From contig JAFXKZ010000002.1 in assembly GCA_017531445.1 (NCBI GenBank), positions 85,213 to 149,212 on the forward strand: a DNA stretch of 64,000 bases, in the 5' to 3' direction. Each line of letters opens with the position of its first letter. The first letter of the stretch is position 1. Of the stretch, positions 29,780-64,000 are shown in pieces. This stretch comes from Kiritimatiellia bacterium. Lineage in GTDB: Bacteria; Verrucomicrobiota; Kiritimatiellia; RFP12; DVOR01. The notes beneath the pieces were generated by a model. The model ran no database searches, was not told where the DNA came from, and was given only the letters and a program-made list of their open reading frames with translations. The position numbers were made by a program, and so were the translations under genes.

Positions 29780-32700
29780 ATGAAAAAGCTACTTTTGGTT
29801 TTATTGACTTTCAGTTTGGTGGCGATTTTACATGCTGCAACCGCCACAGTTAACGGTATTGAATGGACTTACGAAGTCTCAAATGGTGAGGCGCAGCTTT
29901 TTGATCGTTTTTCTCCTGTAATCTCTACATCCACAAGTGGAGTTATCACTATTCCTTCGACCCTTGGCGGTCTTCCCGTGACCTCCATCGGGTTTCATGC
30001 GTTTCGCAATTGCTCAAATTTGACCTCAGTGAGGATTCCCTCTAGCGTGAGATCCATTGAGGAGGATGCGTTTTACGGTTGCTCTGGTTTGACCTCGGTG
30101 ATGATTCCCCAAGGTGTGACTTTTATTGGCAATGAAGCGTTTTACAATTGTTCTGGCTTGACCGCTATAACGATTCCCTCTAGCGTGACTTCCATCGGGA
30201 TTTCTGCGTTTTCGGGTTGTTCAGGTTTGACCTCTGTAACGATTCCCTCAAGCGTGACTCTCCTCGGGGGTTCTGTGTTTTCTGGTGTTTCTCCGACAAC
30301 GTTGACAGCGGCCTGGTTGCCGTCTGGTATGTCTGCGAGTAAGTAGAAGACATTGGTAATTCCCGAAGGTGTGACTTCTATTGGAGATGAGGCGTTTAAG
30401 AATTGCTCGGGTTTACCCTCGGTAACAATTCCTGAAGGTGTGACGGCTATTGGGGAAGGAGCGTTTCGCAATTGCTCAAATTTGACCTCAGTGAGGATTC
30501 CTGAAGGCGTGACTTCAATTGGGAGTCATGCGTTTTCTAGTTGCCACAAATTGTTTTCGGTGAGGATTCCCTCTAGCGTGACCACCATTGGGAATGATGC
30601 GTTTTGGGGTTGCTCTCGTTTGACCTCCGTTTGGTTTAAAGGTAAACCACCGAGTGTTGACTCCTACGCATTTGCGAATCTTCCTTCGTTTGCGATAGGG
30701 GGGTATTTACCTATGTATGCATCAGAATGGGAGTCTGTGATTGATACAGATGGGAAGTGGAATGGTTTAAAAATGGTGTGTGTGGAAGAATTCCCCGCAT
30801 CATTCTCCTGTGAGATTAAAAATGGTGCGGTGACAATTACAAGTGTTCTGGATGATTATCCTCCTGCTCTTATGATTCCCACCTCTCTCGGCGGCTACCC
30901 TGTGACTTCTATTGGAGATGAGGCGTTTAAGAATTGCTCAGGTTTAACCTCGGTAACGATTCCCGAAGGTGTGATTTCTATTGGAGATGAGGCGTTTTCC
31001 GGTTGCTCAAGTTTGATTTCTGTAACGATTTCCGAAGGTGTGACCACAATTGGGGAAGGAGCGTTTTCCGGCTGCTCAAGTTTAACCTCAGTGACGATTC
31101 CTTCTAGCGTGACATCAATTGGGTGGGGGGTGTTTTATGATTGCACAGCATTGCCTAAAGACGAAAACGGTGTACAGTACGAGAGCGCTAAAAAGGTTGT
31201 TTTAATTCATGTGCCGACCTCTTTAACTGGCGACTTCGTAATTCCTGACAGTGTGCGTTTTATTTATCCATATGCGTTTTCCGGTTGCTCGAATTTGACC
31301 TCTGTGACGATTCCCGAAGGCTTGACCGAAATTGGGGATTCTGCGTTTTATGGTTGCAGTAGTTTGACCTCGGTGCGGATTCCCTCTAGCGTGACATCAA
31401 TTGGAGTGGATGCTTTTAGTGGTGTTGCTCCAGAAACATTGACGGCTGCATGGATTCCTAGTGGAATGTCGGGAGATAAGCTCAAGACGTTGATTATTCC
31501 CGAAGGTGTAACATCCATTGGGGAGAAAGCGTTTTACAAATGCTTGAGTTTGACCTCTGTGACGATTCCTGAAGGCTTGACCGAAATTGGGGTGGCAGCG
31601 TTTAGGGAGTGCTCAGGTTTGACATCCATAACGATTCCCTCGAGTGTGACATCTATTGGGGGTGGGGCGTTTTTGGGTTGCTCAAGTTTAACCTCAATAA
31701 CGATTCCTGAAGGTGTGACCTCTATTAGCAATGGGGTGTTTTATGGTTGCTCAAGTTTGACCTCTGTGACGATTCCCGAAGGTGTAACATCCATTGGAAA
31801 GGAAGCGTTTTACGATTGCTCTTTTACCTCAATTACGATTCCCTCTAGCGTGACATCAATTGGAGTGGATGCGTTTTTTTCTTGCTCAAATTTAACATCC
31901 GTGACGATTCCAGAAGGCGTAACATCCATTGGAGATTATGCGTTTAGGCATTGCTCTCGTTTGTGGACTGTTACGCTTCCTCCGAGTCTAACCTCAATTG
32001 GGAGGTATGTGTTTTACTGTTGCTCGAGTTTGAGCTCAGTGACGATTCCTTCAACTGTGACTTCAATCGGGGCCTACGCGTTTTATGAGTGTTCCAATTT
32101 AGATTCGGTGACGATTCCTTCTAGCGTAACCTCTATTGGAGATTATGCGTTTTACAATTGCGAAGGTTTGACCTCGGTTTATTTCAACGGTAAACCTCCA
32201 CAAGTTGGTTCTAGTACATTTGCTTCTTGGTATACTACGGTAATGGGTTTTTACTTTCCTGCGTATGCACCTGAATGGAAGGCGGTGATGGCACAGGGCA
32301 TGTGGAATATGTTAAGGATGGTGTGTTCAGAAGAGAGTCATGCGTCATTAACCTATAAGATTCAAAATGGTGTAGTGATTATTACAGGTGTTAAAAGTGA
32401 CTGCCCTCCTGCTCTTATCATCCCGTCTACCCTCAGTGGTTATCCCGTAACCTCAATTGAGGACTCTGCGTTTCGCGGTTGCACAGGTTTGGTCTCGGTG
32501 ACGATTCCTGAAGGCGTGACTTCAATCGGGAGTCGTGCGTTTTCCGATTGCTCGAATTTGACCTCTTTTGTGGTTGATTCAAAAAATCAATACTATTCGG
32601 CAATAGATGGATTGCTTTGCAGTAAAGATGGCAAGACGCTTATCCAATGTCCTTTGAGTTTAACCTCTGTGACGATTCCAGAGAGTGTGATCTTCATTGA

Positions 32701-35700
32701 GGACTCTGCGTTTTATAGTTGCTCTGGTTTGACCTCTGTGACGATTCCCGAAGGCGTGATTTCAATTGGGGCTTATGCGTTTAACGGTTGCTCTGGATTG
32801 ACCTCTGTGACGATTCCCGAAGGCGTGATTTCAATTGGGGCTTATGCGTTTAACGGTTGCTCGAATTTAACCTCTTTTGTGGTTGATTCAAAAAATCAAT
32901 ACTATTCGGCAATAGATGGATTGCTTTGCAGTAAAGATGGCAAAACGCTTATCGCATGTCCTAGCGGTTTAACCTCTGTAACGATTCCTGAAGGTGTGAT
33001 TTCTATTGGAGATGAGGCGTTTTCCGGTTGCTCAAGTTTGATCTCTGTAACGATTTCCGAAGGTGTGACCACAATTGGGAGTCGTGCGTTTTACGGTTGC
33101 TCGAATTTGACCTCTGTGACGATCCCCGAAAGCGTAACATCCATTGGAGATCATGCGTTTTACGAATGTTCTGGCTTAACCTCTTTGACGATTCCCTCTA
33201 GCGTGACATCAATTGGAGTAAATGCTTTTGGTGGTGTTGCTCCAGAAACATTGACGGCCGCATGGCTTCCAATTGGAATTTCGGGAGATAAGCTCAAGAC
33301 GTTGATTATTCCCGAAGGTGTGTCCTCAATTGAGGACTCTGCGTTTTACAAATGCTCAAGTCTGACCTCTGTAACGATTCCTTCTAGCGTAACATCCATT
33401 GGGGAGAGTGCGTTTCAAGGTTGCTCGACTTTGACCTCTGTGACGATTCCCGAAGGCGTGACTTCAATCGGGGCTTCTACGTTTAACGGTTGCTCGGGTT
33501 TGACGTCGGTGACGATTCCTTCTAGTGTGACCTCCATTGAGGGTTGGGCGTTTTTTGGTTGCTCAAGTCTGACCTCTGTAACGATTCCTTCTAGCGTAAC
33601 ATCCATTGGGGAGAGTGCGTTTAACGGTTGCTCGGGTTTGACGTCGGTGACGATTCCCTTGAGTGTGACATCTATTGGGGGTGGGGCGTTTAACGGTTGC
33701 GAAGGCTTGCCTAACGATGAAAATGGCGTGCAGTATGAGAGTGAAGCAAAGATTGTTTTGATTGACGTTCCGACATCGTTAACAGGTGTATTTGTTATCC
33801 CCAATAGCGTACGTTTTATCTATTCTGAAGCGTTTAACGGTTGCTCGGGTTTGACGTCGGTGACGATTCCCGAAGGCGTGACTTCAATCGGGGCTTCTAC
33901 GTTTTACGGTTGCTCGGGTTTGACGTCGGTGACGATTCCTTCTAGTGTGACCTCCATTGAGGGTTGGGCGTTTTTGGCTTGCGATAGTTTGACCAAAGTT
34001 TATATTTCGGATATCGATGCGTGGTGTTTAATTAACTTTTCTGACAACTATTCCAATCCGTTGTCCTATGATAAGGGCGATTTTTATCTCAATGGAGAAA
34101 AGATTACAACTGTGATTATTCCTTCAAATGTAACTTCAATCAACAGTTATGCGTTTCGCAATTGCTCGAGTTTGGCGTCGGTGACGATTCCTGAAGGCGT
34201 GACCTCCATTGGCGATGAGGCCTTTGGGGGTTGTACCAGTTTAACGTCCGTCACGATTCCCTCTAGCGTCACCTCCATTGGGGATTATGCGTTTAACGGT
34301 TGCTCGGGTTTGACGTCGGTGACGATTCCCTCGAGTGTGACATCTATTGGGGGTGGGGCGTTTAACGGTTGCTCGGGTTTGACGTCGGTGACGATTCCCT
34401 CGAGTGTGACATCTATTGGAGTGAATGCTTTTGGTGGTGTTGCGCCAGAGCTGTTGACAGCGGCGTGGTGGCCAAGTGGAATGTCGGGAGATAAGCTCAA
34501 GACGTTGATTATTCCTGACAGTGTGACCGAAATTGCTAACGATGCGTTTTCAGGTTGCTCGAGTTTGACTTCTGTGACGATTCCCTCTAGCGTGACCTCC
34601 ATTGGGGATTTTGCGTTTGAAGGTTGCTCTGAATTGACCTCGGTGACGATTCCTTCAAGTGTGACTTCAATCGGGGCATATGCGTTTCGCGGTTGCTCGG
34701 GTTTGACGTCGGTGACGATTCCAGAAGGCGTAACATCCATTGGAGATCATGCGTTTTACTGGTGTTCAGGTTTAACCTCTGTGACGATTCCTGAAGGCTT
34801 GACCTCCATTGGGGACTCAGCCTTTTCGTGGTGCTCGGGTTTGACTTCTGTGACGATTCCCGAAGGTGTGACTACTATTGGGTCTTCTACGTTTTACTAT
34901 TGCTCGAGTTTGACCTCGGCGAGGATTCCCTCTAGCGTGACCTCGATTGGGGATTGGGCATTTTCGGGTTGCTCAAGTTTGATTTCTATTACGATTCCCA
35001 AAGATGTGATCACCATTGGGGCAAAGGCCTTTGAAGGTTGTAGCAACTTAGGGGAAGTAATTTTTAAAGGAAATCCTCCGATAGCGAGCTCAGATTCTTT
35101 CATCTTATGTGATGGTTACTACCCCTCAACTAAAGCAACGGAGTGGTCTAAGGTCATTACGTCTGGGCTTTGGAATAATCTTCGCATGACATCGTATCAA
35201 TCGGCAAACATTACATTTGATGCGAATGGAGGCGAAGGCGGCGGTGATGTGACCTTGGATTATGGTGTGGCACTTGTTGCTCCGACTGTAACCCGTGAAG
35301 GTTACACCTTCCTTGGATGGTCTCCGTCTGTTCCTTCAATGGCTCCTGCTACAAATACAACTTACATTGCACAGTGGCAGATTAATCAGTACACGATTAC
35401 CTTTGACGCTGCTGGTGGTGAAGGAGGTACAAGCGTAACACAAGACTATGGTTCATCTTTGGAGATTCCAATTGTGACGCGTGAGGGTTATCTCTTTATG
35501 GGGTGGTCTCCAACTCCACCTACAATTGTTCCCTCTACGAATATAACGTGCGTAGCCCAATGGCGAAGGGCGTGTAATGTTGTGGTTCATATTGACGGAT
35601 CTGGAACCGTTGTGGGTGAAGGAATTTACCCAGAGGGTGCCGAAATTACCTTGACGGCTACGCCGAGTGAAAAGAGCATCTTTTGCGGGTGGAGTACGAC

Positions 35701-36085
35701 ACCTATGAATGGCAATGAAACGTTGCAGCTCACGGTGCCTGGAGAGGACCTAACGCTTACTGCATACTTTATGGATGCGTCAGCGCTTGATGTTTACCTT
35801 CAAACGCATGAAAGCGTTTCTCAGGAGGTAATTGATGCACGCGTAGAAGAAGTTATTACTGAACGTGGACTGCTAACGCGAGCAGAACTCAAGGCATTGG
35901 CAAAGGACTCGCCTGTGGTTGAGGTGAAAAATGGTGTTGCAACGCTAAAGGTGAATTTAAAGCAAGCCGCATCATTGGAAGAACTTTCATCAAATGCGGT
36001 GGATAGTCCGCAACAACTCAACATTAAAGTTCCCGATGACGAAAAGGTGCTTCTTTACAAGGTCGTGAAGCCAAGTAAGGAATAA
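29780..36085 (+). pseudogene. Large BspA-type LRR (LRR_5) surface protein, about 2100 aa, interrupted by one in-frame TAG at 30344-30346
   Basis: Signal peptide, dozens of TSVTIP(E/S)(G/S)VTSIGxxAFxxC repeats, two InlB-B/Flg_new-like repeats and a C-terminal domain. The two track ORFs are in the same frame; GMSASK*KTLVIP aligns with GMSGDKLKTLIIP elsewhere in the gene. Confidence 0.85.
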
Positions 36086-48002: not shown

Positions 48003-48047
48003 AAAAATAATCCGGTTGATTCTTACGAATACAACCGGGTTATTTTT
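48003..48047 (-). terminator. Hairpin immediately after the clpC stop
   Basis: AAAAATAATCCGGTTG...CAACCGGGTTATTTTT. Confidence 0.55.
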
Positions 48048-50787
48048 AAGCTTCTTTTTGACGTGCTTTCACAGAAGGGGACTTGCGCCTTGCCGTTGAT
48101 TTGCGCTTGATTGCAGGTTTAACGGCTGAGACTTTTTTCTGTTTTCCCTTCCTGGCGGTTACGCGAGGAGTCGCTACCAATGTCTCCGGCTCTGCTCCGT
48201 TTTCGGTAGGTTTTGGCGAAAGAATAAAGGTCGTAATCGCCATATCGTGCGAGAGCAGGGCTTCAATTAAAGGGTTTTCAATGTGCGTTTCAATTGCACG
48301 GCGCAAGGGACGTGCACCATGTTTCGGATTATACCCCTTTTTCAAGACGAAAGCACGTGCAGCATCTGTCAGTTCAAAGGTGATTCCAGAAGAGGCAAGG
48401 CGCGTTTGAACTTCATTCAATTCCAACGTAAGGATTTTGTCGAGTGCATCATCGGTCAGGGATTTGAACACAAGAATATCATCGAAACGGTTGATTAATT
48501 CCGGACGTAAAGTCTGTTGCACTTCCTTCATGATTCTTTCCTGAAGGGCTGCATGGGGCATCAAAGGCCCTTGGGCATTCACACCCGGAAGAAAACCAAG
48601 GCTTGGCAATTCCATGTTGAAATGGCATCCGATGTTCGACGTGAGCAGAATAATTGTATTGCGGAAGTCGACATAACGTCCGTGCCCATCTGTAAGCGAA
48701 CCTTCTTCCAAGATTTGCAGAAGCGTATTGGCAATGTCCGGATGCGCTTTGTCAAATTCATCAAAGAGGAGAACCGAATAGGGGCGCCGATGCACACGTT
48801 CAGTCAGGAAACCTCCCTCTTCATAACCGACATAGCCAGGCTGAGTGCCAAAGAGTTTTGAGACGCTATACTTGTCCATGTATTCCGACATATCCAGCCG
48901 AATGAGCGCTTTTTCACTTCCAAAGAAGAGCGCAGCCAGTTGTTTTGCCAAGAACGTTTTCCCGACACCACTCGGTCCGGCAAGCAGAAACGCACCAATC
49001 GGACGCTTCGGATCCTTCATGTTCAAGCGTGAACGTTGCAGCACTTTTGCCATGACTTCGACCACTTCATCTTGTCCAATGATGCGCTCTTTGAGTTTGG
49101 AGGCAAACGACAGGAGAAATTGACGGTCGCTTTCGGTGAGTTGATTGGAGGGAATCCCTGTGATGCTTGCGACAGTTTCTGCAATATTTGCAGCAGTAAT
49201 TTTCACCGGAGCACGATTCCGCTGCGCATTCCATTCATCAAATGCTCGATTAAATGCTTCTTGCGCATTCATTTCATGCGTACGATATGTTTTTGCGGAA
49301 TCAAAATCACTCGCCGCAATCGCGCGTTGCTTTTCATGCCGAATTCGTACTAATTCCATTTCAAGAAGATGCAATTCCTCTGGACGAAAGACGGCATTCG
49401 CACGCAAGCGTGAGCCTGTTTCATCAATCGCATCGATGGCTTTGTCCGGTAATTTTCGGGAAGGAATATAGCGCGTAGTCAGATAGACAGCCGCTTCAAG
49501 AGCCTCATCTGTGTAGATAACGCCATGATGAGACGCATAGCTTGGCGCGAGCCGCTTCAAAATGTTGAATGTTTGTTCGGGAGAAGGTTCTTCAATTGTA
49601 ACCGATTGAAAACGGCGCGCCAATGCAGAGTCTTTTTCAATTTTCTTACGATATTAATCAAGGGTTGTTGCACCAATACACTGAAACTCACCGCGTGCGA
49701 GCGGAGGTTTAATAATATTTGCTGCATCCATTTGGCCTTCATGTCCACCAGCACCAACAATCGTATGGATTTCATCCAAAAAAAGGATGACGTCTTTGGA
49801 GTTTGAAGCCTCTTCAATCACCGTTTTAAGACGTGCTTCAAAAGAACCGCGATACTCTGTTCCGGCGACGAGGAGCGTCATATCCAGTGCGATAATGCGC
49901 TTGTCTAGCATATCTTCAGGAACAGAACGTTCGACAATTTTCTGTGCCAATCCCTCTACAATTGCAGTCTTGCCAACGCCCGCTTCGCCGATCAAAATTG
50001 CATTGTTTTTTCTTCTTCTGCATAAAATTTGGATCAAACGATCCACTTCTTTCTCGCGTCCGATAATAGGATCGAGCAGTTCCTTGCGCGCAAGATCGGT
50101 GATATCCTTGCCGAATTTGTCCAATGCCGAGGTTGAACGATGAGAACTCGCTTCATGGGTATGGGGCGAGCCGGCAGGTGAAGACGAGAGCGACTCTTCA
50201 AAACGGCGAAACTTTTCATCAATAATGCCGCTTTCATCATCATCGTCATCATCACATGGCGAATCAACAGGTGCGTGGCCGGTTTCCTGCTTGTTGTCAT
50301 TGTGAGAAGTTTCGGAGGGGATGGATTGGGAAATCGCTTTAAGTAAACGTTCCTCTGTAACTTCGGTATGACGCAGAATAATTGCGCCCAATCCGTCACA
50401 TTCTTTGACAATGGCTAACAGTAAACAGGTGGTATTTACCTGCTTGAAATTCTCTTGAAGCGCAATCGCCTTTGCCAACTCGCAAACCTTTAACACACGC
50501 ACCGACCAGCAAATCTTTTCTGGTGACAGCAGCTTTTTTTGTTGTTCGCTATTTGTTGAAAAATTGGTGAGCGGCTCTGATAAAATCTGGATGTTTGCGC
50601 GCAAAAACTTCTCTGCGATATTGAATTGTTGCAGTAATTTTTTTGCAGAACAATCAATGACACAGCACGCTAAAAGGAGGTGCCCTGTCCCGATATGGTC
50701 ATGAGAAAGTGCAGCAGCCTCAATTTGTGCTTGGCGTAAAACGGCTCTTGCATTTGTGGAAAAGTGCTCTGTATTTGGATGTTTCAT
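48046..50787 (-). pseudogene. clpC: ATP-dependent Clp protease ATP-binding subunit ClpC, split by one in-frame TAA at 49654-49656
   Basis: Clp N domain, [39 protein letters not shown]-like coiled coil, GPSGVGKT and GARPLRR. Both track ORFs are in one frame. Confidence 0.9.
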
Positions 50788-58147: not shown

Positions 58148-58601
58148 TCACAATGCCAAGCCGCTACATTCACTCGTTACCCCAAAAGAGCACTCAAAAG
58201 CGTAAATGATGCTTAAAATAAAACGCTCAATGTGAAAAGAGGGATTAAGCGTAAAAAGGAGATAGTGTGAAAAGAGCGCAAAGCGCGCACGGGAAATTCC
58301 CGTCCCCACCTCAAAATCAATCCACACGAAAGAAAGCCCTCCCCCAGAACTAGAACGAATCGCTGTAACCCCTGGTAATCCATTAACAGAAGACTCTATT
58401 GGAATTGTCACCAAACGCTCCACCTCATCTGCTGAAAGCCCCCCCAGCCTCCGTCTGAATAACAATACGCGGCACCGAAATGTCTGGAAAAACATCCACC
58501 GAAAGGTTTTTAGAGACATGCCAGCCCATTACCGCTAAAATACCCACAATAGCCAAAATGGTTTTTGGCCACTTCAAAATCAATGTAAAGAAACGCAACA
58601 T
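58148..58601 (-). pseudogene. Truncated, frameshifted CusA/CzcA-family heavy-metal RND efflux gene remnant
   Basis: LSVDVFPDISVPRIVIQTEAGG, then a +1 G in a G7 run (58439-58445), then LSADEVERLVTIPIESSVNGLPGV..IRSSS..GLSFVWIDF. Homology is lost after about 58280. Confidence 0.85.
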
Positions 58602-58681
58602 AAAAAAACACCTTCCTTCAATCAAACGAAACCCATTGAGCGTGAACGCTCAAGGACCTTTCAATTGGAGCAAAAGGCGTT

Positions 58682-59092
58682 TTACGACCGCGGATAAAGT
58701 CGAGGTGCTAGAGAAATATAATCATACGATCGCCACGGAGGGGCCGTTGGCAAAGGGATAACACCGCGTAACAAAAGAGGATTTGACACTTTTATAGCCA
58801 TCACCACAGGGAGCGGCATCCCCACGGGTAAAGTCCCCCTTTTTAATAAAGAACCCTCTAAAAGCGCATCTAAAGCATCAATGGAAATCTCAACACATCC
58901 CTCCGCACCAGACGCAGCGCATCCCGTATCTGAAACATCCTCAAAACAATCACAATGAGCCGTGCCGCAGTTGTCATAATCCTCCACACACAAACACTGC
59001 GAAACACCTAGCAACACACTCATATTCACGACAGCCGCCGCAAGTAACATAGCTCCAACACCTTTTAGAAATTGACGTAACCCACTTCTCAT
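58682..59092 (-). CDS. Small exported Cys-rich protein of the type that precedes heavy-metal RND operons (DUF2946/CzcI-like)
   Basis: Hydrophobic N-terminus, CLC..CGTAHCDC..GC..GC and a C-terminal TAPP; directly upstream of the czcA remnant. Confidence 0.5.
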   Translation of the reverse strand: MRSGLRQFLKGVGAMLLAAAVVNMSVLLGVSQCLCVEDYDNCGTAHCDCFEDVSDTGCAASGAEGCVEISIDALDALLEGSLLKRGTLPVGMPLPVVMAIKVSNPLLLRGVIPLPTAPPWRSYDYISLAPRLYPRS

Positions 59093-59243
59093 AACACCTA
59101 CCTCATAGCATGACGCTTTCACTTTCGCAAGAGAAAACCATCTTCAGAAACAGGCCGAAAAGTTTACAAGCGTACCACAGGGGTAAAAGATGAAATCAAA
59201 GAAGAAGCACATCTTCAATAACACCACACGCTCTCACCATTGA

Positions 59244-60776
59244 CTACTTCGTTGTTTGACTCCCCTTTGCTCGCCATTGAATCTTTTTTTTCGCCTTTAA
59301 ATGCAAAACTTGCCCATACGCACCTGTATCCGACGAAGTGAAACTTGTCGCATTCAAAGCGTCTTTTTGCGCCCATGGTAAGACTACGCGCTCAACCGTA
59401 TCTGGAAGCGTTATCTCTCCAAACAACTTAGGCGGCACATGTACAGGCTGCGTCATATCAGCACGTCGGTATAAAATCCCATCCAATGCGACAAAGGTCT
59501 TATTGTCAGGATGGCAAGCAATATACTCCAATCGTGGGAACTTCTCCCAAAACTCAGGCACAATTGTTGTCACCTGCTTAGGAATGCCCATGCGGACGAC
59601 GTTAATCAATGTGAATTCTGGAATGGGTAATTCTGGTGGCGCGACATCTGCATAAATAAGATTCCCCATATAGCGCGGATTGGGCATTGCCGCCTCTAAA
59701 TCCCCATCAATAAAGGCTTCCGCATAACGCGCATTCATCTGCTTCATGTTATTTTCAACGAATCGCATCACCCCAAAAATACTTGCCACCGCGACCAAAC
59801 AGCCCACAGCAACACAGCCTAACCAAACCCACATCCGATGACGCCGTGCTTTATTTACACGATTCGTCACTGTGGGAAGCTGCTTTAAATAGTCCACAAT
59901 TTCCGCCATAGAGCCCCATCGATTCTCAGGCTTTTTCTCCAAGCACCGCTCAATCAGTTTATCCCAAGCGGAATTCAACCCAAATTCAGAGGGACGCTCC
60001 CACACACCCACAGGATAATACCCCGTTAAAAGACGATAACACATCACACCAAAAGCATAAATATCCGTAGCCGGAGCCGGATGATAGCCTAGTTCATATT
60101 GTTCTGGTGCCATATAATCTGGCGTACCACAAATGCCATTCCCATCAGGATTCTCACTCATATTCTGAAGATGAGCAATGCCAAAATCTGTAATCACAGC
60201 ATGCCCATCTTCTCGCAAAAGAATATTACACGGTTTCAAATCACAATGAATCACCCCATCCCCAAAATTATGTGCATAGTGCAATGCCGCTGCAATCTCA
60301 CTCAAAAGGACTCGCGCCACAGACTCCTTTAATGGCCCACTCTCATGAAGCACATCCTCTAACGTAAGCGCAGTACGTGCCATCATATTAACAGATGACG
60401 TTGCCCCCTGCTTGGCAAACCATGCCCCACCCAAAAGCATCTCTTTTCGACGTGCTGGTGAAACCCCCACATAATCCATCACAATATAAAGTCGCCCTAA
60501 CGCTGGATCAACACCTAATGTGTGCAAGGTGACAATATTACTATGTCGCAAACGTGCTGTAATGCGTGCTTCAGCGAGAAAACGCTGCGTCGCAGTTTGC
60601 TCATTCCCCGCCTGTGTGACAAGATTCATCATCTTAAGGGCAAACACCTCTTCCAATAGAGGATTCACCACCTTATAAACTTCCCCCATGCCACCTGTAG
60701 CACAAAAATGCATCACGCGATAATCACCGATTACCGTAGAAGGACTCAAAGAATTCGTTCCTGTTTGCATTGACAT
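59244..60776 (-). CDS. Hanks-type Ser/Thr protein kinase with a TM helix and an LRR-like extracytoplasmic domain
   Basis: GGMGEVY, FALK, FLAE, IHCDLKPCNILL, DFG, GTPDYMAPE and DIYAFG; TM WVWLGCVAVGCLVAVASIFGVM; C-terminal HPDNKTFVALDGILY..GEITLPDTV. Confidence 0.92.
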   Translation of the reverse strand: MSMQTGTNSLSPSTVIGDYRVMHFCATGGMGEVYKVVNPLLEEVFALKMMNLVTQAGNEQTATQRFLAEARITARLRHSNIVTLHTLGVDPALGRLYIVMDYVGVSPARRKEMLLGGAWFAKQGATSSVNMMARTALTLEDVLHESGPLKESVARVLLSEIAAALHYAHNFGDGVIHCDLKPCNILLREDGHAVITDFGIAHLQNMSENPDGNGICGTPDYMAPEQYELGYHPAPATDIYAFGVMCYRLLTGYYPVGVWERPSEFGLNSAWDKLIERCLEKKPENRWGSMAEIVDYLKQLPTVTNRVNKARRHRMWVWLGCVAVGCLVAVASIFGVMRFVENNMKQMNARYAEAFIDGDLEAAMPNPRYMGNLIYADVAPPELPIPEFTLINVVRMGIPKQVTTIVPEFWEKFPRLEYIACHPDNKTFVALDGILYRRADMTQPVHVPPKLFGEITLPDTVERVVLPWAQKDALNATSFTSSDTGAYGQVLHLKAKKKIQWRAKGSQTTK

Positions 60777-60785
60777 CTCCCACCC

Positions 60786-63700
60786 TCACTTCCTATAAAT
60801 CAATTTTAACGACTTGCTTCCAGACTCTGCACGTAATTGATTCACGGTCTGTTTGAGCTTTCTACCTCTTTTCAGATAAATACTGTTCAAATTTGCCATC
60901 TCATTCAAAGCACCGTCATAAAGTTTAAAGTTTGAACCAACTTCTTCTAAAGAGAGAGACGTGACGCGGGAATTAGTAGCAACAAATGCATTTGGGGCAA
61001 TCCCAACAATCTTTTTCCCGCCAAATTCTCTGGGAAGTTTGGGTGTCGCGTACGAGGCTTGATAAGACCATAACAGACAACTATCATTTGCGACCTTCAA
61101 GAATACCACGTCATTCTTTTCCTCCAACAAATTCCAATAAGGCTCTGCAGCCTTCCCGTTTTTATGTGTCCGAGAAAAGAGCGGATACTTTATGTTTGAA
61201 GGCAACATAAATGAATCTTGTGCAAATACTGGGATCCCTTCCGTTCCCAAAACAATCGTTTTACCACCGAAAAATGCTCCTGGCTCAATCATCAAGCGGG
61301 TAGCATCTTCAAAGTAGAGGTGCCCCACCCAATACTGACTAAAAGCGCCACGACGAATGCAACGAATGGGCTTACCATTGATTTCCGCAGGAATATAAAG
61401 CGTACTATCCGGTGAATTAAAGAATGCACGATCCGGCGTAAAACGTGTAATGGCAACGCCATCCCCAAATGCTTCTACTGCCACCTCGCTAGATTGTAAC
61501 ACACGATAACCGACTTGTTGACGCACTTGAACATTCGTCTGTAACGTCGCAGAGGAAATCGTTGAGGCAGTTGAATCAGACGGCACTAGCGTGTAGACAT
61601 TACCATTTTGTTGGTAACGATAAAGTGCACCATTCCCTTTCAATTCTAAGCGAAATGATGTTGGTACCTCCTCAAACGTGTAGGAGCCCACAATTCGAGG
61701 CAAAGTAGTTTCAGGCATTTCAACCTTCTCGAGTGCGGAACAATGCGAAAAAATAGCTTGAGGAAAATACTTCGGAGCCGAAAGAAAGGTCACCTTCTTC
61801 AAACTCGTACACCATTGAAACATCCATGCCCCCACGTTGAAGACATCCATCTTAAGCGAACGGGGCAGTGTTACTTCTTCCAACTTTTCCATGCGGATAA
61901 AACACGCATTCTCAATACGAGTAATCGTCTCTGGGAGCGTCAATGACCGAACCTCTTTAAAATCACCTAAAGCGCCACTCGCAAGCGTACTGACTTTAAG
62001 ACCATCTATTTGGTCCGGCACCACAATCTTTGTCACCGTTTTCGGCAAGTTACACCTTACAATCTTCAGCGTACCATCATCCAACACCTCCGTATCCCAA
62101 GTACTAAGAACATACGTCCCACTTTTCCACTTCTGTTCTCGTGGACTCCAATGACGAATTTGTTCACCCTCGATATGAAGTTCTAAAATATGTGTCTCAC
62201 TTGTGAGAGCACCTTTTGCAAATATGGGCTTTGCCCCTTTAGGAAAATGGAGCACCACAATGCCATACGGAGCATAATCCGCATTAATCGCCCTATTTTC
62301 AAAGTACACCTCTTTTTGTCCAAAATACAGATCAATCTTATTGTCTGCCGCACTCCCACCAATCCCAGAAAGCGCGTTATACTTAACGCGTGTTATGTTC
62401 GTAAAGTGTATCTCTGCAACCCCAAAACTCCGCCAAAATGGGCCGTAAGGAATCACGCCTGTAGACAATGTTGTTAATTGGGTGTCAAAGTTCAACTTCA
62501 CGTAATCAAATCTGCACCCAGTGATAACACGTCCACCAGTTGATTTCAAATTCTTAGGAAAGGTGATTTGTTTAATCTTTGAATTCTGAAAAACACTCTC
62601 ACCTAAGTTCTCCACAGAGTTGGGCAGTAGCGCGGCCTGAAGGGCTGACGCATTAAATGCCTCATCGCCAATTTCACGTAACCCTTCAGGGAAATTCACC
62701 ATTTGGATAGACGAATCCTTAAACGCTCTTTCGGCTATGCTCTTAATTGTCTTCGGCAAGACAACTTGCTCTAATTGCTTATTTTGCGCAAACGCACTTA
62801 CACCAATCTCAAAAATCTGTACTCCGTTATGTTCTTCTGGAATAACCAACCGCGTAGGAAGACTCACTCCTTTTGAAAAACCTTTTACAATATACCCATC
62901 TCCCCTTCTTTGAACAACTAAACCTGAATCTAATTGTTCAACCTCATTTGTCGTATCCTCTGAAATCAGCGTATACACATTATCCACATGCTCATAACGA
63001 TAGTGCGTCCCATTACCTTTCAATTCTAAGCGAAATGATGCTGGCACCTCCTCAAATGTACAACTACCATCAATTTGAGGCAACATTGTCCCAGGCATCT
63101 CAACCTTCTCAAGTGCGGAACAATGCGAAAAAATAGCTTGAGGAAAATATTTCGGAGCCGAAAGAAAGACCACCTTCTTCAAACTTTTACACCATTGGAA
63201 CATCCACTTGCCCACATCGGGTTCATCCATCTTAAGCGAACGGGGCAGTATCACCTCTTCCAACTTTTCCATGTGGATAAAACACGTATTCTCAATGCGA
63301 GTAATCGTCTCTGGAAGCGTCAATGACCGCACCTCTTTAAATTCTCCCAAGGCGGCACCCGCAAGCGTACTGACTTTACGACCATCTATTTGGTCCGGTA
63401 CCACAATCTTTGTTACCGTTTTCGGCAAGAGGCATTTTATTATTGAAAGCGTGCCATCATCCAGCACCTCCGTTTCCCAAAGGTTCAATTTTGCCGCGCC
63501 TGCCTTCCATTTTTGTTCGTTAAGATCCCAATGGCGTACAGGCTCTCCTTCAATGTGAAGCTCCAGCTGCCTCTTGATGTTAAATAACGCATTCTCCCTA
63601 AATGTCGGCTTCGCCCCTTTAGGAAAATGCAACTCAATTATTAAGCTTAAGTCTTCTTTGGCTGAAGATTCAAAAGCCCATGTATCAAAAATAACATTCT

Positions 63701-64000
63701 TTTGTTGGAAAAAGATCTTTAAACGATTATTCAAAGCCCCATGCCCAATAATGCTAAACGCATCCCTCATTACACGTGTTACGCTTGGCAAGTAAATTTC
63801 ATTAATGCCAAAGGTATACCAAAAAATAGATCGTGTAAGTATTTCTTGCTCCTCCGCAAAGATAATCTTTGCATTGTCAAACGAACATCCTGTCAAAATG
63901 CGTCCACCCATTTGTGTGACTTTCTTAGGGAAACGAATCTTTTTTAAGGCCGAATTTTGAAAAACACTCTCTCCCAATTCCTCCAAATAACTCGGCAATA
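60786..64000 (-). CDS. Large BspA-type LRR protein, C-terminal part (5' end outside the window), with a tandem duplication of about 1380 bp
   Basis: LGESVFQNS, LPETITRIE and IP..I.G..V..I LRR_5 motifs. The frame is open to the window edge; the block at about 63980-62960 repeats at about 62610-61590. Confidence 0.85.
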   Translation of the reverse strand, partial: LPSYLEELGESVFQNSALKKIRFPKKVTQMGGRILTGCSFDNAKIIFAEEQEILTRSIFWYTFGINEIYLPSVTRVMRDAFSIIGHGALNNRLKIFFQQKNVIFDTWAFESSAKEDLSLIIELHFPKGAKPTFRENALFNIKRQLELHIEGEPVRHWDLNEQKWKAGAAKLNLWETEVLDDGTLSIIKCLLPKTVTKIVVPDQIDGRKVSTLAGAALGEFKEVRSLTLPETITRIENTCFIHMEKLEEVILPRSLKMDEPDVGKWMFQWCKSLKKVVFLSAPKYFPQAIFSHCSALEKVEMPGTMLPQIDGSCTFEEVPASFRLELKGNGTHYRYEHVDNVYTLISEDTTNEVEQLDSGLVVQRRGDGYIVKGFSKGVSLPTRLVIPEEHNGVQIFEIGVSAFAQNKQLEQVVLPKTIKSIAERAFKDSSIQMVNFPEGLREIGDEAFNASALQAALLPNSVENLGESVFQNSKIKQITFPKNLKSTGGRVITGCRFDYVKLNFDTQLTTLSTGVIPYGPFWRSFGVAEIHFTNITRVKYNALSGIGGSAADNKIDLYFGQKEVYFENRAINADYAPYGIVVLHFPKGAKPIFAKGALTSETHILELHIEGEQIRHWSPREQKWKSGTYVLSTWDTEVLDDGTLKIVRCNLPKTVTKIVVPDQIDGLKVSTLASGALGDFKEVRSLTLPETITRIENACFIRMEKLEEVTLPRSLKMDVFNVGAWMFQWCTSLKKVTFLSAPKYFPQAIFSHCSALEKVEMPETTLPRIVGSYTFEEVPTSFRLELKGNGALYRYQQNGNVYTLVPSDSTASTISSATLQTNVQVRQQVGYRVLQSSEVAVEAFGDGVAITRFTPDRAFFNSPDSTLYIPAEINGKPIRCIRRGAFSQYWVGHLYFEDATRLMIEPGAFFGGKTIVLGTEGIPVFAQDSFMLPSNIKYPLFSRTHKNGKAAEPYWNLLEEKNDVVFLKVANDSCLLWSYQASYATPKLPREFGGKKIVGIAPNAFVATNSRVTSLSLEEVGSNFKLYDGALNEMANLNSIYLKRGRKLKQTVNQLRAESGSKSLKLIYRK

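Follow-up and report, generated by a model that had tools for sequence, protein, structure and literature searches.

The window, by which we mean the whole 64,000-nucleotide stretch of DNA analyzed here, comes from a gut bacterium of the Kiritimatiellia/Lentisphaerota (PVC) group. Near its end lie two adjacent genes on the minus strand, a complete one encoding the small partner of a kinase pair and, upstream of it, one encoding the large partner (Table 1). The small partner matches the Pfam family Pkinase (PF00069) with 134.6 bits over residues 27 to 288 (cut-off, 31.7). The VAIK lysine (here VFALK), the alpha-C glutamate, the catalytic aspartate and asparagine, and the DFG and APE motifs are all intact, and the activation loop is short. 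No arginine precedes the catalytic aspartate; HCD occupies this position in 12 of 12 aligned small partners and also in that of genome G043. Judging from these motifs, the small partner is a Hanks-type Ser/Thr kinase of the non-RD class, as an earlier note made from the sequence alone had claimed, and the one transmembrane (TM) helix described in that note also proved to be a single hydrophobic helix. Because a cluster of positive charges (KARRHR) lies on the kinase side of this helix, the kinase is predicted to lie inside the cell and the C terminus outside. An insertion of ~35 residues (SPARRKEML..GAWF...LTLEDV) in the kinase domain is common to the large partner. A scan of genome contigs with the small kinase returned nothing but distant generic kinases. 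As for the gene's start, the second ATG, at 60770, would give a protein of 508 amino acids (aa); several 508-aa database entries start there, a GGGAG lies 6 nt 5' of it, and it is likely the true start.

Table 1. Features of the two-gene locus in window coordinates
Feature	Coordinates	Strand	Remark
Small partner gene	59244..60776	minus	ORF of 510 aa from first ATG; Pkinase match
Outer domain of small partner, 169 aa, residues 342-510	59247..59753	minus	periplasm-facing; predicted capped minimal BspA/LRR_5 fold
Core BspA repeat unit, residues 393-465	59382..59600	minus	repeatedly aligns to LRR_5 proteins
Hairpin motif HPDNKTFVALDGILY (N..F...DG.LY)	59469..59513	minus	BspA-repeat type
Single TM helix, residues 315-337	59766..59834	minus	hydropathy scan
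Kinase domain of small partner, residues 17-300	59877..60728	minus	
HCD catalytic-loop motif, H177-C178-D179	60240..60248	minus	HCDLKPCN; non-RD
9-nt spacer GGGTGGGAG	60777..60785	minus	large-gene TGA to small-gene first ATG
Large partner, 3' part, residues 810-1879 of 1879	60786..64000	minus	
Tandem duplication inside LRR outer domain	61588..64000	minus	block of ~1.38 kb (~460 aa)

The upstream gene had been described in the earlier note as a BspA-type LRR gene of more than 1070 aa and as the sensor of a sensor-kinase pair. Retrieval of its 5' part, which the same note had proposed, revealed a kinase domain and a TM helix. The full gene leaves the window, reaching the equivalent of position 66425 (L001:3999-9638, minus strand; L001 coordinates plus 56787 give window coordinates), and its 1879-aa product consists of an N-terminal RD kinase (HRDIKPAN; 126 bits against PF00069, cut-off 31.7), a TM helix (about residues 328 to 350), and then LRR_5 repeats. 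Of these parts, the window lacks the RD kinase, the TM helix, and the first LRR_5 blocks. The LRR_5 assignment stands (323 bits against Pfam LRR_5, PF13306, in six stretches and above the cut-off), but the upstream protein is itself a full receptor kinase and not a sensor without a kinase, so that, in place of a sensor joined to a kinase, the pair comprises two kinases, one RD and one non-RD. The activation loop of the large partner is long and conserved (..SLSLR..GT.EYMAPE), and HRD is found in 10 of 10 large partners aligned. Its LRR_5 repeat region covers about 1500 aa and includes a tandemly duplicated block, the copies of which are 74 to 82% identical in DNA; we attribute the length differences between strains (1168 to 1879 aa) to gain and loss of this block. 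Outside the kinase, the best NCBIfam match is the HupY/LrrG adhesin. Other secreted BspA proteins are encoded in the same genome, and the C-terminal domain of those in the window was looked for in the large kinase and is absent.

The two genes are separated by very little. The TGA of the large gene (60786-60788) is followed by a purine-rich, Shine-Dalgarno-like spacer, which puts the first ATG of the small gene 9 nt and the second 15 nt from the stop, close to the 10 bp given in the earlier note. Among the complete junctions, 11 of 12 have an overlap of at most 4 nt or a gap of at most 19 nt (the exception, L144, has 135 nt), and such tight spacing or overlap suggests coupled translation. No terminator-like site was found between the large and small genes. 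From these junctions, the two genes almost certainly form one operon, in keeping with the cotranscription proposed before. Two candidates for a third gene were set aside: related loci have no equivalent of the 146-aa Cys-rich open reading frame that lies downstream (58682-59122), and the window does not have the small open reading frames that follow the pair in L143, L144, and L138.

The outer domain of the small partner carries a motif that had been noticed for its resemblance to BspA repeats; the comparison motif, DSKNQYYSAIDGLLC, occurs in two copies in a BspA open reading frame at 30353-36085. Sequence, profile, and structure searches all lead to LRR_5 proteins. With phmmer, the 171-aa outer part gave 1397 matches at an E value of <=1e-3 among 1.8 billion representative proteins, and the long top matches that were checked were LRR_5 proteins in 7 of 7 cases, each aligned in several stretches. 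A profile of the domain found 4cp6 (PcpA, the best match) at E 1e-6 and 4h09 at E 1e-5 among PDB sequences. An AlphaFold (AF2) model of the domain (pLDDT 87.6) had 4h09, 4cp6, and 4gt6 as its best Foldseek matches, with an E value of 1.3e-5, 32% identity, and an rmsd of about 2.8 Å for 4h09. When searched in isolation against Pfam, the domain matched no family, LRR_5 included, even at E <=10, because a single unit is too short for a model spanning six repeats; a word-indexed homology search returned one near-identical protein and nothing more. By these sequence and model comparisons, the small outer domain derives from BspA/LRR_5, with a likeness far beyond chance. That it might be a recent copy of the partner's own repeats was considered and dropped, since its profile resembles them weakly (E 0.066).

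Constraint between strains differs among the parts of the pair. Conservation is strongest in the kinase domains (omega, 0.06 to 0.09); purifying selection acts on the small outer domain (omega, 0.12 to 0.16), and the large one differs in length and is 63 to 83% identical (omega, 0.18 to 0.39). The large outer domain, by these estimates, diverges faster than the small one. The confident predicted BspA fold of the small outer domain and its low omega together indicate that it is functional.

The pairing itself is conserved, so that, with the LRR_5 similarity of the small outer domain, both grounds on which the earlier note would have been refuted are contradicted. The pair was found at 15 loci: in the window, in genomes G003, G012, G019, G021, and G043, three times in G017, and on six metagenome contigs. 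Three of these (G003, G021, and G017 C8) are near-copies, and contig G017 C46 ends inside the large gene. The distribution is patchy: within the genus, 7 of 28 species have the pair, counting that of the window, and it was not found in any of 173 genomes representing the 44 other genera of the order. Flanking genes change at nearly every locus, even between strains that are 87 to 91% identical. Throughout, the RD/non-RD split is strict, every large partner having HRD and every small partner HCD (the G043 pair likewise), and all catalytic residues are kept in both kinases and in every orthologue aligned. The two kinase domains are 36% identical, and the insertion present in both is unique to them. 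In the kinase tree, the small and large partners form reciprocally monophyletic sister clades (support, 100/98 and 98/97; union, 100/100), the internal branching of the small clade matches that of the large clade, and the nearest relatives found for both are kinases of PVC-group bacteria. The tree and the shared insertion indicate that the two kinases are sister paralogues, which arose by one tandem duplication, codiverged, were kept together, and are inherited as a unit. Recent horizontal transfer, suggested by a local low G+C content and a skew flip, was rejected, as the G+C content of the pair follows the local flanks in every genome, from 44% to 67%; by its composition, the pair is a long resident of its genomes.

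The reading that we prefer, and hold at roughly even probability, is that the two sister membrane kinases constitute a heteromeric, receptor/co-receptor-like signaling pair facing the periplasm. The large and small proteins would be made together and would form one heteromeric unit in the inner membrane. The variable large LRR domain would bind a periplasmic or envelope-associated ligand, and binding would bring the RD kinase into contact with the constant non-RD partner by way of the outer, TM, or kinase parts of both. Trans-phosphorylation could follow, with the RD activation loop as the simplest target, and the activated pair would then phosphorylate cytoplasmic targets encoded elsewhere in the genome. 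The earlier note had suggested contact, host, or phage sensing; in a cell with two membranes, an inner-membrane protein turns its outer domain toward the periplasm, which speaks against its directly touching a host cell or phage particle. A more specific version, offered tentatively, is a receptor/co-receptor system that evolved independently of the plant one, in which a fast-evolving RD LRR kinase may bind an envelope ligand and recruit a constant, minimal-LRR non-RD partner, with ligand-induced pairing and trans-phosphorylation.

Alternatively, the genes could encode two independent receptor kinases that have signaled separately since the tandem duplication and stay adjacent through a shared promoter. 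In favor of this, the large kinase stands alone at one locus (L137), and truncated variants of either outer domain persist: the small partner of L141 (344 aa) has no outer domain at all, and in G012 no LRR_5 is detectable in the large partner, whose small counterpart has a truncated outer domain. These variants mean that contact between the outer domains cannot be obligatory. Independence would also fit the complete catalytic residues of both kinases and the weak similarity of the small outer-domain profile to the partner's repeats. However, the genes remain adjacent at 15 loci despite changing flanks between closely related strains, the small and large trees match, the RD/non-RD split is not only strict but complementary, and the genes are so tightly spaced or overlapping that their translation may be coupled. 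We consider two independent kinases possible but rather doubtful.

Genes around the pair bear on a different explanation, an anti-phage or conflict module whose kinases would detect infection or damage to the envelope and respond by phosphorylating cell targets, so that infection is aborted in the manner of single-gene defense kinases. In G021 and G003, the pair adjoins DarT-NADAR, a UvrD-like helicase, Card1, and a type III-B Cmr CRISPR locus, and one G017 copy lies beside Cas3; the patchy occurrence within the genus (7 of 28 species) and the variable large outer domain could be read in the same way. However, G021, G003, and G017 are close relatives and effectively one observation, and the neighbors at the other loci are housekeeping or envelope genes. 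Matches to defense families in PADLOC and NCBIfam are generic kinase-domain matches far under the family cut-offs (MAD6, 105 versus 460; PglW, 41 versus 990), and PD-T4-6, MADS Mad6, and BREX PglW gave no full-length match and have no partner genes beside the pair in the window. In addition, the outer domains face the periplasm, whereas phage components appear in the cytoplasm. A defense role thus seems very unlikely. The least probable reading is that the large protein is a membrane-anchored BspA-type adhesin, in which the kinase parts play an accessory role or control how it is displayed. Where the role of a BspA/LRR_5 protein is known, it is that of an adhesin, and the HupY/LrrG and PcpA matches and the other secreted BspA proteins of the genome agree with this; but an inner-membrane anchor in a cell with two membranes would keep the LRR off the cell surface unless there is another route, the kinase domains are the most conserved part, and the large kinase does not have the C-terminal domain of the window's secreted BspA proteins.

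Conserved company of the kind known from other bacterial kinases was also looked for. The earlier note had pointed to FHA and PP2C genes as possible neighbors, but no such gene lies next to the pair, and neither these nor any other conserved third gene accompanies it at the examined loci. The genome encodes four FHA proteins, none adjacent to the pair, and no PP2C_2 gene was found in the searched half of the genome. Membership of the PASTA kinases (PknB/Stk1/PrkC) failed as well, with 164 bits against a cut-off of 450 for NF033483, through the kinase part only, and the pair contains no PASTA domains.

Most receptor Ser/Thr kinases known from bacteria carry PASTA, beta-propeller, or small sensor domains, and LRR outer domains are a hallmark of plant and animal surface receptors. 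In this setting, the operon offers a simple two-gene model for LRR signaling across a bacterial membrane, for what is gained mechanistically by pairing an RD with a non-RD kinase, and for the origin of receptor pairs by duplication. It also places BspA repeats, usually read as adhesins, among predicted kinase sensor domains in uncultured gut bacteria. The use of the model is limited by an uncultured organism and by the confinement of the pair to one genus. If the receptor/co-receptor reading is true, bacteria would have their first described LRR receptor complex of two kinases, and with it a natural means of testing why an RD kinase is paired with a non-RD one.

Neither a bacterial BspA-LRR kinase nor an RD/non-RD pair of bacterial kinases was found in the literature searched, which agrees with the earlier suggestion that the pair is possibly undescribed. 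Among known systems, the pknA-pknB operon of Mycobacterium tuberculosis (Actinobacteria) likewise encodes two paralogous Hanks-type kinases, which cross-phosphorylate. As in PknA and PknB, the paralogues lie side by side, each runs from an N-terminal kinase through one TM helix to a C-terminal outer domain, and the sensor domain is large in one partner and very short in the other. However, PknB senses through PASTA domains, both mycobacterial kinases are of the RD type, and their operon has a fixed place with PP2C, FHA, RodA, and PBP genes, whereas the pair described here has a BspA/LRR_5 sensor, one non-RD partner, no conserved neighbor, and a changing position.

The same layout is found in uncharacterized kinase-TM-LRR proteins, such as P0229 of Verrucomicrobiales, which has canonical LRRs, and P0103, an unrelated LRR_5 giant. 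Those are single genes, RD where checked, without the shared insertion, and with kinases only ~30% identical to the ones described here; to our knowledge, none of the kinase-TM-LRR proteins of other bacteria is part of an RD/non-RD paralogue pair. In plants, receptors with a large, variable LRR domain (FLS2, EFR, or XA21) act with co-receptors with a small, conserved one (BAK1/SERK), and such pairs also combine one RD and one non-RD kinase. The bacterial pair resembles them in joining a large variable LRR kinase to a small conserved partner and RD to non-RD. However, the large LRR domain of the plant pairs sits on the non-RD kinase, whereas here the non-RD kinase carries the small outer domain, and, unlike the LRR kinases of the plant RLK/Pelle family, both bacterial proteins have an N-terminal kinase, a C-terminal outer domain, and repeats of the LRR_5 class. 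The likeness is thus one of layout only and convergent at most. In repeat family and fold, the outer domains belong with BspA of Tannerella forsythia, PcpA (4cp6), and the LRR protein of Eubacterium ventriosum (4h09); those adhesins have no kinase and are either secreted or anchored in the wall, whereas here the repeats are carried by predicted inner-membrane kinases.

The gene pair at the end of the window encodes two paralogous receptor kinases, rather than the LRR sensor plus kinase that an earlier note on this DNA had proposed. The window's genome assembly comprises two contigs totaling 1.4 Mb (roughly 50% complete), in which the upstream gene extends another 2.4 kb past the window to give a full product of 1,879 aa. 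The retrieved 5' part shows an N-terminal kinase reading HRDIKPAN, and therefore of the RD type, and a transmembrane (TM) helix at about residues 328 to 350, after RKRKVKR; the C-terminal ~1,500 residues carry six LRR_5 stretches (323 bits). The small partner matches PF00069 with 134.6 bits over residues 27 to 288 (cut-off, 31.7) and retains the VAIK lysine, alpha-C glutamate, DFG, and APE. Its catalytic loop reads HCDLKPCN, making it a non-RD kinase, and its single hydrophobic helix (residues 315 to 337) is preceded by a KARRHR cluster, which places the kinase in the cytoplasm and the last 169 residues outside. The intact non-RD kinase with one TM helix described earlier is thus borne out. 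Aligned over 356 residues, the kinase domains of the two partners share 36% identity (E 8e-63), and both contain an unusual ~35-residue insertion that separates the hinge from helix E, which together indicate paralogy. Because this insertion is conserved in both paralogue groups and not in the other kinases compared, it is a family signature; its pattern is SP.RR.E.L..G.WF ... L[TS]LED[VL].

Features of the window discussed in the text
Position	Strand	Feature	Description
30353-36085		BspA ORF	
48046-50787	-	ClpB/ClpA-type AAA+ chaperone gene	Divided between two neighboring ORFs, one of 377 aa (N-terminal half) and one of 525 aa (C-terminal half)
58148-58625	-	Two overlapping short ORFs	Resemble first ~100 residues of RND (CusA/AcrB-type) efflux pump; frameshifted, truncated
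58682-59122	-	146-aa ORF	Hydrophobic N-terminal stretch, Cys-rich segment; 122 nt downstream of small kinase
59244-60776	-	Small kinase gene	ORF, 510 aa
59754-59876		Small kinase residues 301-341	TM and juxtamembrane part
60240-60248		H177-C178-D179	Catalytic loop of small kinase
~60357-60470		Small kinase residues ~103-140	Hinge-helix E insertion
60786-window end		Upstream ORF (large partner)	Four LRR_5 stretches, 206.7 bits

Sequence and structure comparisons identify the small outer domain as a minimal BspA module. Pfam assigned it to no family, even at E<=10, and a word-indexed search returned a single match, a 93%-identical copy. Searching 1.8 billion representative proteins with phmmer gave 1,397 matches at E<=1e-3 (175 at E<=1e-10), nearly all of them long proteins aligned in 3 to 22 separate stretches by small-kinase residues 393 to 465. 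The BspA-type repeat unit is visible in these alignments, and all seven of the long matches scanned are LRR_5 proteins. A profile built from eight orthologous outer domains matches the sequences of two solved LRR_5 structures, PcpA (4cp6, E 1e-6) and a Eubacterium ventriosum protein (4h09, E 1.3e-5). The AlphaFold model of the domain, built on the orthologue alignment (pLDDT 87.6, pTM 0.81), has 4h09 as its best Foldseek match in the PDB (E 1.3e-5, 32% identity, rmsd about 2.8 A), followed by 4cp6 and 4gt6, all BspA-type LRR proteins. All three approaches therefore uphold the LRR_5-derived ectodomain that had been suggested. The window's BspA ORF contains two copies of the motif used for comparison, DSKNQYYSAIDGLLC.

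The two genes adjoin closely, as had been claimed, and no terminator-like site was found between them; the spacer from the large-gene TGA to the first ATG of the small gene is 9 nt (GGGTGGGAG), not 10. A second ATG lies 6 nt downstream of the first, with a well-positioned GGAG before it, and is the start in several database entries of 508 aa. At 11 of 12 complete junctions, the genes overlap by at most 4 nt or lie at most 19 nt apart, the outlier being a metagenome contig (L144) with 135 nt. The pair occurs at 15 loci in all, including six metagenome contigs (L138, L140, L141, L142, L143, and L144). By whole-genome search, full-length small-kinase orthologues, outer domain included, are present at 47 to 56% identity in 7 of the 28 species of the genus (the window's own counted) and in none of 173 genomes from 44 other genera of the order. 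At every genome locus of the genus, the large-partner gene lies directly upstream. LRR_5 similarity and a conserved pairing, the two points on which the earlier note staked its reading, are thus both found. HCD is kept in all 12 aligned small partners and also in G043, another genome of the genus, and HRDIKPAN with a long activation loop containing SLSLR in all 10 large partners.

Maximum-likelihood analysis of the kinase domains separates small from large partners as sister clades (support 100/98 and 98/97; union 100/100) with matching internal branching, and the nearest outgroups are Verrucomicrobial kinases. This topology indicates one ancestral tandem duplication and subsequent codivergence of the partners. 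The flanks of the pair vary at almost every locus, even among strains 87 to 91% identical, and its G+C content tracks those flanks from 44% to 67%, which suggests that the pair has long been resident, subject to rearrangement and loss, and disfavors recent transfer.

When close strains are compared, each of the two kinase domains shows ~94 to 95% identity (omega 0.06 to 0.09). The small outer domain is 91 to 94% identical, and its omega of 0.12 to 0.16 shows purifying selection and hence a functional domain. The large LRR domain is 63 to 83% identical (omega 0.18 to 0.39), and the large protein ranges from 1,168 to 1,879 aa because a ~460-aa block has been gained or lost; in the window's genome this block is tandemly duplicated (copies 74 to 82% identical in DNA). 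The TM and juxtamembrane part changes fastest in both partners, on few codons: omega is 1.6 to 1.9 over only 41 codons of the small kinase (residues 301 to 341) and 0.54 to 0.82 for large-kinase residues 321 to 460, outside the window.

Chances are about even that the two kinases form a heteromeric signaling unit, the reading we favor. Both proteins would be cotranslated from one mRNA; the RD kinase would bind a ligand with its variable LRR domain, and the constant non-RD partner would be engaged through its own outer, TM, or kinase parts. Trans-phosphorylation, most simply on the long activation loop of the RD kinase, could then initiate phosphorylation of targets encoded elsewhere. Alternatively, the products may act as two independent receptor kinases, which we consider unlikely given how consistently they are paired. 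A large kinase without partner (contig L137), a small partner without an outer domain (L141), and a truncated pair (G012) are evidence against obligatory outer-domain contact.

A role in defense is improbable. In two genomes of the genus (G021, L051:5328-15531; G003, L054), the pair adjoins a defense island that encodes DarT with its NADAR antitoxin, a helicase of UvrD-like type, the CARF nuclease Card1, and a type III-B Cmr CRISPR module; in a third (G017, L056:3566-5803), a Cas3 gene adjoins another copy of the pair. These three genomes are closely related to one another.

The acetolactate synthase encoded in the window shares 88% identity with its counterpart in a Candidatus Spyradenecus MAG and 82 to 87% with those in MAGs that carry the labels Kiritimatiellae, Lentisphaeraceae, and Ca. 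Spyradenecus, of which one or more came from animal gut (water-buffalo caecum). NCBI taxonomy places the genus within Lentisphaerota, in the PVC group. Bacteria of this group have two membranes, so the outer domains of inner-membrane kinases would face the periplasm. With this orientation, sensing of an envelope or periplasmic ligand fits better than direct host-cell or phage contact. A role of the giant LRR proteins as adhesins is improbable. Neighboring genes hint weakly at a connection with the envelope: PBP, MurJ, and LpxK in L141, Amidase_2 in L138, and, in G043 (L145:11954-14973), ddl-like and ftsA-like genes (N-terminal sequences only) directly downstream of the pair, which would be the end of the cell division and cell wall cluster.

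In the window, the 146-aa ORF beside the small kinase has no family match and no counterpart at any related locus. The RND fragment beyond it resembles a remnant bordering the kinase cassette; in L137, a complete RND operon adjoins the solo large kinase. The split in the ClpB/ClpA-type gene may reflect a frameshift, pseudogenization, or misassembly.

The initial observation is confirmed and its interpretation partly supported. We found no studied bacterial BspA-LRR kinase or RD/non-RD pair in the literature searched, in keeping with the suggestion that the system was possibly undescribed; the new element is the conserved pairing of an RD with a non-RD paralogue, one with a giant and the other with a minimal BspA outer domain. 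The kinase-TM-LRR layout by itself occurs elsewhere too: in Verrucomicrobiales proteins, the TM helix is followed by canonical LRRs. Among the phmmer matches, a 2,519-aa protein from an ENA metagenome contig (P0103) is an unrelated RD kinase-TM-LRR_5 giant; it has 15 LRR_5 stretches, and its kinase shares just 31% identity with those of the pair, so the fusion of kinase and BspA repeats arose more than once. The closest bacterial analogue is the pknA-pknB operon of Actinobacteria, which likewise encodes tandem paralogous receptor kinases with one large and one small outer domain but has a PASTA sensor, two RD kinases, and a fixed genomic context. Plant LRR receptor/coreceptor pairs also combine a large variable with a small constant LRR and RD with non-RD kinases, but differ in orientation, LRR class, and which partner is non-RD; the likeness is at most convergent. 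The pair is best described as a variant of bacterial receptor kinases, distinguished by its conserved RD/non-RD pairing with BspA outer domains.
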